64,000 nt of DNA from Dictyostelium discoideum (lineage: Eukaryota), in NCBI GenBank assembly GCA_000004695.1, contig CM000153.2, forward strand, positions 5,024,001 to 5,088,000. The letters are read 5' to 3'. The position numbers and the translations under genes are program-made. Of the stretch, positions 21,840 through 23,528 are shown piece by piece; the stretch's first letter is position 1, and every line of letters begins with the position of its first letter. The notes below the pieces were generated by a model. The model saw only the letters and a program-made list of their open reading frames with translations. It ran no database searches and was not told where the DNA came from.

Positions 21840-22080
21840 TATAATAATAGTGAAAAACAAATTATAAATGAAATAGAAATTGTTATGTGAAAAGAAAAAA
21901 AGAACAGATTATTTTAAATTAAAGAATTTAGAAGAACTCAAACTGTTACATAACAACCCAGGGATATTGGAACAACCACAAAAGTAAAGAATCAATTGTG
22001 CAATTAAAATGAATGGATGAGGAATTGATTGAATGCTTGTGTAATTGAAAAGAAGGTTTAACTTAAAGATATGAATTCAA
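21840..22080 (+). pseudogene. Decayed fragment paralogous to the N-terminal region of the 23649..26777 gene (about 24040..24300)
   Basis: By eye the nucleotide sequence is collinear with 24047..24300: gaaaaacaaattataa...ttatgtgaaaagaaaaaa...aaagaatttagaagaactcaaa...gtgcaattaaaatgaatg...aattgattgaat...gaaaagaaggttt. Indels and stops break the frame. Confidence 0.4.
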
Positions 22081-22756
22081 TTCAGATGTTTTTACAGGGG
22101 CCCAAAAATAATGGTGCATTAATGTTCCACACCCTAATTTCCAGAATCGAACCAGCAATCTAAAATCAACATCCAAATTAATATTATATGAATGCTGTAA
22201 AGCGTGAATCAAAACTAACTTTTCAGTTTTTATAATTTTCGAGTTTTCGTTATTTTCGGCCGAAGAGTTTCGAACGAAAACTCTAAAATATATAAAAACT
22301 AAATAAATTAATTATTATTTTAATTATTATTGTTTAATTGTTAATCATTATTATTCTTATTATTATTACTATTATTAATATTATGATTATTTTTTTTTTT
22401 TACCTAAAGGCGGTGTATTGTTATATTTTATTTCATTTTTAAGTTTTTAAATTTTTATATTGTTATATGTTGATATTTTTGGTTATATTATGATTTCTTC
22501 TACTTGGTTTTTTTTTTTTTTTTATATTATGATTATTTTTTTTTTTTTTTTTTTTTTTTTTTGATATAAATAAACTATTGTAGTATACAATTAGTATGTT
22601 ATTTTTATTTATTTATTTTAGGTTTTTTAGTTTTTGTGAATTTAAAATTGTATGTTATTTTAGATTTGATAATTAATAATTAATTGGTAGTGTAATTGTT
22701 GGAATTGGTTCATTTGTGTTTATGAATTAGTATGTTATTTTTATTTATTTATTTTA

Positions 22757-22793
<37 letters not shown>

Positions 22794-23160
22794 TGGATTA
22801 ACAAGATTGATATATGTCCATCTGTGTTAATACGAGTTTTATTTAATATTTATTTAAAGGCTTATCATTTAAGCTGAAGGGTTATTTTAATCATATGAAT
22901 TGATCAAAAGATATAATATTTGGGAGAGATGATTCTGGAATACAATAGTAATTAGCTGTTGTTTTTCTTAGCTTGATCGTTGAAGTGAGAAGGATCTTAG
23001 GATCTTTGAAGTTATTATGGTCTTTTGCTGATAAGTTTTTCAGATCTTTTGCTTTTTTGATAATTTAGGTTTTTTAGTTTGTGAATTTAAAATGGTATGT
23101 TATTTTAGATATATTATGATTATTAAAACTTATTAATATTAAACAATGTAATTCATTACA
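22080..23160. mobile_element. Modular repeat tract on the 3' side of the tRNA-Val gene; probable degenerate tRNA-gene-targeted retroelement remnant (TRE-like). Identity unresolved
   Basis: Short modules recur: tagtatgttatttttatttatttatttta at about 22593 and 22727; ggttttttagttt(tt)gtgaatttaaaat(t/g)gtatgttattttagat at about 22621 and 23067; atattatgattatt four times. A B-box-like gctggttcgattctgg lies on the minus strand at about 22140, and a perfect 11-bp hairpin at about 22236..22290. The tract is GC-richer than its surroundings and lies immediately 3' of the tRNA. Confidence 0.3.
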
Positions 23161-23176
23161 CAAAAACATTAGTTTG

Positions 23177-23250
23177 TATTCAGAGCGGGAATCGAACCCA
23201 CGACCTAATCCGTGTTAAGGATTCGTGATAACCGACTACACCATCCGAAC
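23177..23250 (-). tRNA. tRNA-Val (anticodon AAC)
   Basis: The minus strand reads GTTCGGATGGTGTAGTCGGTTATCACGAATCCTTAACACGGATTAGGTCGTGGGTTCGATTCCCGCTCTGAATA. The acceptor stem pairs 7/7 (two G-U). The anticodon stem AATCC/GGATT closes the loop TTAACAC, giving anticodon AAC. The T-arm is GTGGG-TTCGATT-CCCGC and the discriminator base is A. Confidence 0.7.
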
Positions 23251-23528
23251 TAATCGATGAATTTAAAAAAAAATAGCTCTACCCCAATTTTAGAAAATAA
23301 ATGCAAGAATACTTTATATGGACGCAGAAATGATATTTATTTATTTGATAGAATTGGTTTTTTTTTTTTTTTTTTATCAAGATAAAAAATGTAAATTGGA
23401 AAAATAAAATAATCCATATTTAATTTTTTTTTTTTTTTTTTTATCAAGATAAAAAATTTATTTTTTGTAATTTTTTTTTTGCTATTTTTTTGAGAACAAA
23501 ATGGGAATTTATTTTTTAGTAAAAACAT

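Follow-up and report, generated by a model that had tools for sequence, protein, structure and literature searches.

A TRE3 3' end within probable retrotransposon debris between a tRNA-Val(AAC) gene and its external B box in Dictyostelium discoideum

The tRNA-Val(AAC) gene and its displaced external B box

The window (the whole stretch of DNA analyzed, 64,000 nucleotides) belongs to the AX4 lineage of Dictyostelium discoideum and lies next to grlD, whose AX4 product, GrlD (Q54L53), is the neighboring protein. It holds a tRNA-Val(AAC) gene on the minus strand at 23177-23250 (3' end at 23176/7), detected by ARAGORN and Rfam (RF00005, 57.9 bits), with an internal B box, GGTTCGATTCC, at about 23198-23208. 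Because the gene is on the minus strand, lower coordinates lie on its 3' side. A sequence-only reading of the window had reported this gene with a modular tract on that side, and both are present, the tRNA by the two programs and the repeats by count. In Rfam searches of 21400-23700, at the gathering threshold and at E<=10, the tRNA was the only hit; matches to miRNA and CRISPR-repeat models were far below threshold.

The original 3' flank of the tRNA gene, including the T5 Pol III terminator CAAACTAATGTTTTTG, spans 23161-23176 (minus strand) in alignments to L007 and L008, two other assemblies labelled D. discoideum with 4% gene divergence. It is the final stretch that is collinear with L007 and L008, both of which lack the tract. 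In these assemblies the tRNA gene is followed by a B box after about 35-38 nucleotides and then directly by a gene fragment. With the B box only about 35 nucleotides from the tRNA there, the segment of about 984 bp at 22177-23160 (minus strand), from the tRNA terminator to the external B box, represents extra DNA of the AX4 lineage. This insertion cluster is absent from L007 and L008 and unchanged in L003, a second AX4-lineage assembly that differs only in homopolymer lengths and one SNP. Its boundaries are good to about 10 nucleotides only (22177 and 23160, +/-10), because the comparison assemblies contain many intergenic indels, and a short TTTG repeat is found at each junction.

No remnant of the tract was found in L007, L008 or L009. 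In L009, which belongs to a different lineage, short TRE3-like pieces of its own, ending in poly(A), follow the same tRNA gene, an RT fragment precedes it, and a deletion in the same place has taken out the B box. L010, the assembly that diverges most, has neither the tRNA gene nor the gene fragment. Since the tRNA-Val locus of D. citrinum (L001) is not orthologous to the window locus, D. citrinum gives no information about the empty site.

A B-box-like element at about 22140 on the minus strand had been noticed before and taken for part of a retroelement. The element itself is present at 22141-22153 (plus strand CCAGAATCGAACC, minus strand GGTTCGATTCTGG), but its assignment to a retroelement does not hold, since an orthologous external B box (ex-B) is found in L007 and L008. 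Specifically, the 20-mer CCAGAATCGAACCAGCAATC also lies about 35 nucleotides behind the orthologous tRNA in L007, and a version with 2 mismatches lies about 37 nucleotides behind it in L008. At the orthologous locus the element has the B-box consensus, the orientation of the tRNA, and a position a few tens of nucleotides downstream. The spacing in L007 and L008 is that of ex-B boxes at other tRNA genes, and the sequence at 22141-22153 is similar to the ex-B boxes that follow tRNAs in L001, L002, L004, and L012. Judged by this comparison, the element is the tRNA gene's own external B box, moved 1 kb away. It resembles the ex-B of Dictyostelium tRNA genes in carrying GGTTCGATTCTGG in the tRNA orientation, at 35-38 nucleotides in L007 and L008, but differs in lying 1,023 nucleotides from the tRNA in the window, owing to the insert in between, and in that the insert cluster begins upstream of ex-B. 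TRE3 landing has been described as downstream of either B box (PMC5911963).

The region of about 22100-22200 was also considered as a Class I RNA or DUSE-driven ncRNA gene, a reading that was rejected because the comparative data account for it as ex-B plus insert. Moreover, GCCCAAAA does not fit the DUSE consensus, and the motif-like CTTTACAGCA is on the opposite strand. The earlier claim that the tract is richer in GC than intergenic DNA applies to the average (about 0.21, compared with 0.07-0.18 in the intergenic 21100-21800) but not to 22300-22800, which is ordinary at 0.12-0.185. The excess comes from 22800-23100 (0.25-0.29) and 22000-22300 (0.31).

Beyond the ex-B lies the gene fragment, at about 21830-22094 on the plus strand. 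It is a pseudogene piece corresponding to codons 132-223 of a neighboring 1042-aa gene, and its parent segment (24043-24318, plus strand) is inside the intact gene at 23649-26777. As had been proposed from the sequence, this decayed paralog is real: 21844-22094 is 79-88% identical to 24043-24318 and contains stops, frameshifts, and a 24-bp deletion. L007, L008, and L009 also contain it. It lacks a poly(A) and runs antisense to the elements of the tract.

The further suggestion, that the insertions mobilised or truncated a copy of the neighboring gene and so yielded the fragment, is very unlikely. The end of the fragment is about 50 nucleotides from the B box, beside a proven retroelement landing site, and the absence of both tRNA and fragment from L010 means that their history may be shared. 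However, the fragment adjoins the B box and the tRNA in L007 and L008, which lack the tract, and also occurs in L009, so that it predates the insertions and was not created by them. It is on the strand opposite the sense strand of the elements, lacks a poly(A) or a recognisable target duplication, and at 79-88% identity to its parent is far more diverged than the TRE3 fragment described below (98-99%). On these alignments, the gene fragment is older than the tract insertions and unrelated to them.

A TRE3 3' end behind the tRNA gene

TRE3-A, formerly Tdd-3, is a tRNA-gene-targeted, L1-like non-LTR element of D. discoideum. The identified share of the insert, 303 of about 984 bases, is E1 (22759-23061, 303 bp, minus strand), a 5'-truncated TRE3 3' end by its sequence identity to TRE3 copies. 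On the same strand it comprises the last 56 codons and the stop of ORF2 (22891-23061), the 3'UTR (22789-22890), and an A30 tail (22759-22788) that follows the conserved 3' end ...CAATCTTGTTAATCCAATATT. This end recurs with poly(A) in L004, L001, and L002. In L004, a D. discoideum locus in which three TRE3 copies stand in a row behind tRNA-Leu(CAA), the three TRE3 3' ends are 98.4-99.0% identical to E1 over 294-304 nucleotides. The D. citrinum copies (L001, L002) are 84-89% identical to E1; they follow three tRNA genes, for tRNA-Val, tRNA-Lys, and an intron-containing tRNA, share their orientation, and end in poly(A). The relatives of E1 are multi-copy and stand at different tRNA genes, in D. 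discoideum (L004) and in D. citrinum.

The 56-codon peptide of E1 is identical to the C-terminus of P0033, a 1260-aa ORF2. P0033 matches RVT_1 (E = 7e-19) and possesses a C..C..H..C (CCHC) motif; its match to Exo_endo_phos is weak (E = 0.0026, below Pfam's cut-off). E1 itself keeps none of the endonuclease, RT or zinc-finger domains. The proteins related to E1 form 29 clusters, all of which match at their C-terminal ends.

The 5' junction of E1 (23061/23062) is 115 nucleotides from the tRNA 3' end at 23177, and E1 shares the minus strand with the tRNA, as the copies in L001, L002, and L004 likewise share the orientation of theirs. TRE3 integrates roughly 40-150 bp downstream of a tRNA gene, in tRNA orientation (PMC5911963), and the 67 copies of Dd_TRE3-A lie 14-228 bp downstream of tRNA genes (PMC5006619 Table 1). 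The distance and orientation of E1 agree with these published values (PMC5911963, PMC5006619).

E1 ends in a poly(A) tail, without an LTR, and its insertion can be compared with a paralogous empty site. It splits a 77-nucleotide module, M, into a tRNA-proximal half, M1a (23062-23110, minus strand, defined by alignment to M2), and a distal half, M1b (22725-22758, minus strand), which comes right after the poly(A) and belongs to a 32-nucleotide exact repeat. An intact module, M2 (22589-22665, minus strand, from the M1/M2 alignment), lies further from the tRNA. When M1a plus M1b is compared with M2, there are 8 extra nucleotides exactly at the E1 junction. These extra nucleotides (TAAATT / CTTAAAAT) would correspond to an imperfect target duplication of 6-8 bp; the L004 array has a clean 9-nucleotide duplication, ACAAAAGTT.

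Together these comparisons identify E1 with certainty as the 3' end of a TRE3 non-LTR retrotransposon. The subfamily is most likely TRE3-A, an assignment that rests on element length and abundance. At L004 the full-length relative measures about 5.2 kb, and the published TRE3 lengths are 5229 for A, 5279 for B, and 4734 for C (PMC5006619 Table 1); the types of ORF2 C-terminus in L005 and L006 are just 44-47% identical. E1 agrees with TRE3-A in that its C-terminal ORF2 codons, 3'UTR, and poly(A) come from a multi-copy element about 5.2 kb long, whose ORF2 carries endonuclease, RT, and zinc-finger parts. It is also 98-99% identical to other copies, is 5'-truncated, probably has a short target duplication, and lies 115 nucleotides downstream in tRNA orientation. 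It differs in keeping the last 273 nucleotides and tail only and in being nested in older material, not in virgin flank. With its poly(A) tail, its 5' truncation, the evidence from the empty site, and a probable short target duplication, E1 also recalls the 5'-truncated and nested insertions of mammalian L1; in contrast to L1, however, the targeting of TRE3 in the window is position-specific relative to a Pol III gene.

The empty site bears on the polarity of the 984-bp difference as well. That the 984 bp would be ancestral, and deleted independently or jointly by L007 and L008, is a most improbable alternative. The short form is known from just two closely related assemblies, and the deletion at this place that removed the B box from L009 indicates that deletions do occur here. 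On the other hand, the short form has the canonical 35-38-nucleotide spacing between tRNA and ex-B, as at unrelated tRNA genes, E1 is young (98-99%) with an empty-site control, and the lack of any tract remnant in L007, L008, and L009 argues further against deletion.

Repeated modules and unassigned units

About two thirds of the insert had no match in the sequences compared. As the sequence-only reading had described, this material is repetitive, and all three repeat families were found in the tract. The first is an exact repeat of 32 nucleotides (22589-22620 = 22725-22756), for which 0 cases are expected by chance. The second is a 49-nucleotide pair (22617-22665 and 23064-23110) with 94% identity. 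The third, ATATTATGATTATT, has 3 exact copies, all within the tract, and one variant at 22485-22497; apart from these, what comes close to it in the window is plain (ATT)n.

On the minus strand, and moving away from the tRNA, the units are arranged as follows. The first 14-mer, T1 (AATAATCATAATAT, 23111-23124), is 53-66 nucleotides behind the tRNA, on the tRNA side of a unit called E2, which was defined as M1-spacer-M2-tail. The spacer between M1 and M2 (22666-22724, read from the sequence) ends in a 17-codon ORF remnant, FINTNEPIPTITLPINY. This remnant is faintly like the ends of TRE3 ORF2 (..YCIP..LP..DQFI; P0011, P0017, and P0033 were compared), a likeness that is not statistically significant. 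The tail GTATACTACAATAGTTTATTTATATC with an A27 run (22536-22588) forms the poly(A) end of E2 and is followed right away by T2, an exact second copy of the 14-mer (22524-22537). Next come a short unit of A16 and then CCAAGTAGAA (22498-22523), within a tandem repeat of 40-nucleotide period reported by TRF, and the variant 14-mer T', GAAATCATAATAT (22485-22497). The A16 plus CCAAGTAGAA unit is ill-suited to a simple reverse-transcription product. E3, an 82-nucleotide AT-rich segment ending in an A-run (22392-22484), precedes T3, the third exact 14-mer (22378-22391), which runs into an (AAT)n microsatellite. Part of the recurrence of the 14-mer could thus be related to the microsatellite and not to target-site duplication.

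The distal part of the insert, E0 (22177-22377, minus strand), combines the (AAT)n run (22301-22377) with a hairpin (22225-22300) and the stretch 22177-22224; its distal end has no poly(A). The hairpin had been reported near 22236 as perfect. It is present, but its stem of about 28 bp has bulges and only an 11-bp core is perfect. The DNA fold of its 76 nucleotides has an energy of -22 kcal/mol (z = -5.5 relative to shuffles). Rfam gave only sub-threshold matches to miRNA models (26.5 bits compared with a gathering score of 60), and the hairpin is not among the miRNA hairpins listed for D. discoideum in the supplementary data of PMC6161686.

For E2, E3, and E0, no second copy was found in the roughly 270 kb of Dictyostelium sequence compared, and a search for them in L005, L006, L012, and L009 gave nothing significant. 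Neither BLAST nor nhmmer matched E2 or E3 to 3' ends of the TRE3-A, L005, and L006 types or of L009, and the best local alignment of the unassigned units to TRE3 ends has z = 3.1 relative to simple shuffles. The short poly(A) element ATCTTTTGTAWCAAAGAAYTCTTTGATAA, which both D. citrinum loci share, does not occur in the window. In a metagenome scan, a 20-mer from the E2 tail had one chance match, on an unrelated GC-rich eukaryotic contig. By position, orientation, and poly(A) ends, E2 and E3 may represent TRE3-like insertions, and they are not filed here as members of TRE3.

It is possible, if doubtful, that the tract outside E1 is lineage-specific, AT-rich intergenic DNA that grew locally by microsatellite expansion, tandem duplication (of the 136-nucleotide M-plus-spacer and of the 40-nucleotide unit), and filler DNA, with the poly(A) stretches being ordinary homopolymers. 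The missing second copies of E2, E3, and E0 would be explained in this way, TRF reports tandem periods of 40 and 24 nucleotides, the 14-mer blends into (AAT)n, and homopolymer runs of 20-30 nucleotides are common across the window. Nevertheless, the runs in the tract are all A on the tRNA sense strand, and two of them directly precede an exact copy of the 14-mer, which itself lies within the published TRE3 integration window. The ORF remnant of the spacer, with its resemblance to TRE3 ORF2 ends, also speaks against local growth. In addition, equally tiny poly(A)-ended TRE3 remnants occur at L009, L001, and L002, and old TRE3 remnants decay to unrecognisable AT-rich DNA, for example in L012.

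An unlikely origin for the oldest layer, E0 (23125-23160 plus 22177-22377, about 250 bp), is a Skipper-2 (DGLT-P) solo LTR or small element, with TRE3-type insertions arriving later. Dd_Skipper-2 lies 8-23 bp downstream of tRNA genes and has a 208-bp LTR (PMC5006619 Table 1). E0 starts 16-17 nucleotides behind the tRNA, within that 8-23 bp window, opens with TG on the minus strand, is flanked by a 4-nucleotide TTTG repeat, and without its microsatellite is close to 200 bp. However, its other end is not CA, leaving one canonical terminus only, and unlike Skipper-2 it has no coding remnant. Moreover, 0 solo LTRs are listed for Dd_Skipper-2 (PMC5006619), no match was found to the LTR-retrotransposon-bearing locus L005, and 16-17 nucleotides is also inside the ranges of TRE3-A and TRE3-C, which start at 14 bp.

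To our knowledge, D. discoideum has no described class of SINE-like elements or processed pseudogenes. It is quite unlikely that the unassigned poly(A) units are copies of a short, non-autonomous poly(A) element not described before, or of host 3'UTRs, that the TRE3 machinery mobilised in trans to its usual target. A milder variant would take the displaced ex-B, 1 kb from the tRNA gene it belongs to, as a putative orphan site for TFIIIC.

Proposed history of the tract and its significance

The tract had been proposed to be a retroelement landing site. In the sense of a landing site of the TRE3 kind this was upheld, both by the identity of E1 to TRE3 copies (98.4-99.0%) and by the lack of the tract in L007 and L008. 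Overall, the tract of about 1 kb is very probably retrotransposon debris behind a tRNA gene, at a locus that was targeted repeatedly. The ancestral order, kept in L007 and L008, would have been tRNA, T5 terminator, about 35 nucleotides, ex-B, and the old pseudogene fragment. In the AX4 lineage, about 984 bp would then have piled up between the terminator and ex-B, all in tRNA orientation.

In this family, the endonuclease of ORF2 cuts one DNA strand at a fixed distance from the B box that Pol III/TFIIIC occupies. Reverse transcription of non-LTR elements starts at the poly(A) end and mostly breaks off early, leaving 5'-truncated copies. The youngest event at the locus is the integration of a TRE3, most likely TRE3-A, 115 nucleotides behind the tRNA, in which only the last 273 nucleotides and the A30 tail were transferred (22759-23061). 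This integration would have made the 6-8-bp target duplication inside the pre-existing 77-nucleotide M1, with M2 as the uninterrupted sister site. The host material of E1 would be M1-spacer-M2-tail-A27, the 82-nucleotide A-ended segment, and the A16 unit, each between copies of the 14-mer AATAATCATAATAT. We infer that these units are earlier retro-insertions of this kind, poly(A)-ended, decayed, and cut very short at the 5' end, which would have entered the same target successively, duplicating it each time.

Sequential targeting of one tRNA gene by TREs is known to produce tandems (PMC5006619 Table S2 note). The window resembles such arrays in having several poly(A)-ended units in one orientation at one tRNA, as do the three TRE3 copies in L004, but its units are tiny (25-260 nucleotides) and unassignable except for E1, and one insertion is nested. 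A TRE element accompanies about 61% of D. discoideum tRNA genes (PMC5006619), and the presence of TRE3 fragments with truncated 5' ends behind such genes is already described, known biology of the D. discoideum genome.

The analysis corrects how the B-box-like element and the gene fragment had been read. Moreover, the locus offers a clean natural case in which insertions separate a tRNA gene from its ex-B, with the empty state kept in sister assemblies. It could serve to ask whether the position of ex-B influences the expression of the tRNA or subsequent targeting by TRE3.

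The tRNA-Val locus and its external B box

The tRNA-Val(AAC) gene, called by both ARAGORN and Rfam, lies on the minus strand at 23176/7-23250, and lower coordinates are therefore on its 3' side. GrlD of D. discoideum strain AX4 (Q54L53) is encoded at 13852-16315 of the window. L003 (GCA_054883475.1), a newer, second assembly from this lineage, agrees with window 13623-36843 apart from homopolymer lengths and a single SNP; it also spans the run of N (assembly gap) at 29207-29309, within a long poly-N/poly-Q gene (26966-33097). The orthologous locus was reached in four further assemblies via cluster members of GrlD. 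Two of these, L007 and L008, are labelled D. discoideum and are 96% identical in genes, while L009 and L010 are labelled D. cf. discoideum and are 94.6 and 92.9% identical in genes, respectively.

Behind tRNA-Val in L007 and L008 come the terminator, ~20 nt and CCAGAATCGAACCAGCAATC (window 22141-22160), with a gene fragment directly adjoining. Homology to the window covers the tRNA as far as 23161, breaks off and picks up again near 22176, indicating that ~984 bp are extra in the AX4 lineage. The B-box-like sequence included among the transposon remains by the sequence-only reading is indeed present, at 22141-22153. However, judged by this comparison, it is the tRNA-Val gene's own external B box, a host sequence displaced by the insertions rather than transposon-derived. 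The normal spacing of the external B box is 35-38 nt, matching other tRNA genes examined, versus 1,023 nt in the window.

A TRE3 3' end in the insert

The tract contains the repeated modules claimed for it, as exact and near-exact repeats. These include a 32-nt exact repeat (22589-22620 and 22725-22756), a pair of 49-nt repeats with 94% identity (22617-22665 and 23064-23110) and the 14-mer ATATTATGATTATT, whose three exact copies (T1, 23111-23124; T2, 22524-22537; T3, 22378-22391) are confined to the tract and are joined by one variant (T', 22485-22497). The T-runs read as A-runs on the minus, or tRNA, strand: A30 (22788-22759), A27 (22562-22536), A16 (22523-22508) and A12 (22401-22390). From the tRNA, the minus-strand order is 52 nt of flank, AATAATCATAATAT (T1), the first part of a module M copy (M1a, 23062-23110), element E1 with its A30 tail, the second part of that copy (M1b, 22725-22758), a 59-nt spacer, an intact copy (M2, 22589-22665), a 26-nt tail, A27, T2, A16 with CCAAGTAGAA, GAAATCATAATAT (T'), an 82-nt segment, an A-run, T3, (AAT)n, a hairpin, ~50 nt, the B box, ~50 nt and the gene fragment. 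The flank was also described as GC-richer, which holds for 22800-23100 and 22000-22300 but not for the middle of the tract, which is ordinary AT-rich DNA.

The GC-richer stretch of the tract holds a 56-codon open frame closed by a stop. With this peptide as query, two proteins of D. citrinum were recovered at 88-91% identity. Their loci (L001 and L002) are unrelated to one another and to the window, and at both a tRNA gene is followed downstream by an E1-like sequence that shares its orientation and has a poly(A) end: in L001 behind tRNA-Val and also behind an intron-containing tRNA, and in L002 behind tRNA-Lys. A longer copy reaches on its 5' side into sequence coding for a CCHC zinc finger. 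A full HMMER scan yielded 29 clusters of relatives, with the match always at the C-terminal end of the protein. A member of one cluster, the 1260-aa D. discoideum protein P0033, ends in 56 residues identical to the window frame and contains RVT_1 (E = 7e-19) plus a weak match to an endonuclease. Additionally, D. discoideum locus L004 carries three such copies in tandem behind tRNA-Leu(CAA), bordered by the duplication ACAAAAGTT, with an external B box 35 nt behind the tRNA. All three 3' ends share 98.4-99.0% identity with window 22759-23061 (E1).

TRE3 elements lie 40-150 bp downstream of tRNA genes, sharing their orientation, with an oligo(A) tail and an ORF2 composed of endonuclease, RT and zinc finger (PMC5911963; PMC5006619). 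E1, whose 5' junction is 115 nt behind tRNA-Val, fits the published position, orientation, tail and ORF2 make-up. The subfamily is likely TRE3-A, because the full-length relative in L004 is ~5.2 kb, TRE3-A is the most abundant subfamily (5229 bp, 67 copies; PMC5006619) and two other sampled ORF2-end types (L005 and L006) are only 44-47% identical. With E1 taken out, the joined M1a-M1b sequence departs from M2 by a single substitution, an indel of 2 nt and 8 additional nt located precisely at the junction. M2 thus serves as a paralogous empty site, against which the apparent target-site duplication is 6-8 bp and imperfect.

Two other sequences were observed in D. citrinum. ATCTTTTGTAWCAAAGAAYTCTTTGATAA followed by poly(A), a short sequence seen behind two different tRNA genes (L001 9361-9389 and L002 10140-10168) but not in the window, probably represents the 3' terminus of a further poly(A) retroelement. 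At about 7990-8075, L001 also has an intron-containing tRNA-like gene with no ARAGORN call, followed by an external B box and a 5'-truncated TRE3-A-like 3' end.

The remainder of the insert

E1 accounts for about one third of the insert, and three segments are distinguished in the remaining two thirds. Exact copies of the 14-mer enclose E2 (M1, spacer, M2, tail and A27); E3 (the 82-nt AT-rich segment and its A-run) lies between one variant and one exact copy. The point of insertion lies 53-66 nt behind the tRNA, with every A-run on the sense strand of the tRNA. At its end, the spacer reads FINTNEPIPTITLPINY*, loosely resembling TRE3 ORF2 ends (..YCIP..LP..DQFI*), and the AT-rich stretch that follows, with AATAAA repeats, is laid out like a TRE3 3'UTR. 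Sequential targeting of TREs is known to yield tandems (PMC5006619). From this layout we infer that E2 and E3 may be sequential TRE3-type integrations: successive elements would have entered the same target behind the tRNA, duplicating it each time. Against this reading, the 14-mer grades into (AAT)n microsatellite sequence, the A16 and CCAAGTAGAA unit does not fit and the distal ~200 bp lack poly(A). An nhmmer search with other TRE3-type 3' ends found no match to this material, and the best alignment had a z-score of 3.1. Within the ~270 kb of Dictyostelium sequence compared, neither M nor E3 nor the hairpin segment was found again.

The third segment, E0, comprises the distal part (22177-22377) and the 35 nt adjoining the tRNA (23125-23160). 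It could possibly be a solo LTR of Skipper-2, which has an integration window of 8-23 bp and an LTR of 208 bp (PMC5006619); its start 16-17 nt behind the tRNA falls in that window but also in TRE3 distance ranges. The hairpin, previously called perfect at about 22236, is imperfect and spans 22225-22300 (76 nt) of the AX4-specific insert, with a DNA fold of -22 kcal/mol (z = -5.5). It matched no Rfam family at threshold and none of the portion of published D. discoideum miRNA hairpins that was searched. A perfect palindrome with a ~25-bp stem and no sequence relation to this hairpin occurs at L005 8395-8455, immediately downstream of the tRNA-Glu(UUC) external B box. Hairpins may recur in the vicinity of tRNA 3' flanks.

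The gene fragment and the landing site

The decayed paralog fragment reported beyond the tract is present. Over 21844-22094 it is 79-88% identical to 24043-24318 of the neighbouring 1042-aa gene, and it carries stops, frameshifts and a 24-bp deletion. No Pfam domain is present in this parent gene (23649-26777), whose annotated length differs among the window and L007-L010 (1042, 1067, 885+186, 1071 and 1078 aa). The proposal that insertions mobilised or truncated the gene copy did not hold, as the fragment sits beside the B box in L007 and L008, which are without the tract. The fragment is thus older than the tract, and the insertions neither created nor moved it. In the intergenic region of L010, the most divergent assembly (17636-18367), both tRNA-Val and the fragment are absent, so their gain or loss may have been a joint event.

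In L008, ~140 bp of extra DNA (about 18365-18500) is present ~45 bp upstream of the tRNA-Val orthologue, a position at which TRE5 or DGLT-A elements land. L009 has lost the external B box of its tRNA-Val. TRE3-like pieces downstream of this gene and an RT fragment upstream lie at 17930-18075 and 18286-18618; the former are two tiny poly(A)-ended 3' ends. The latter is a 5'-truncated non-LTR fragment (RVT_1, E = 1.2e-9; 34% identical to TRE3-A-type RT) ~120 bp from the tRNA and pointing away from it, a TRE5-like position. Since L009 has its own insertions, the tRNA gene has been struck independently in different lineages. Overall, the TRE3 3' end and the lineage-specific insert bear out the retroelement landing site recognized behind tRNA-Val, and retroelement landing behind tRNA genes is here already well-described biology.
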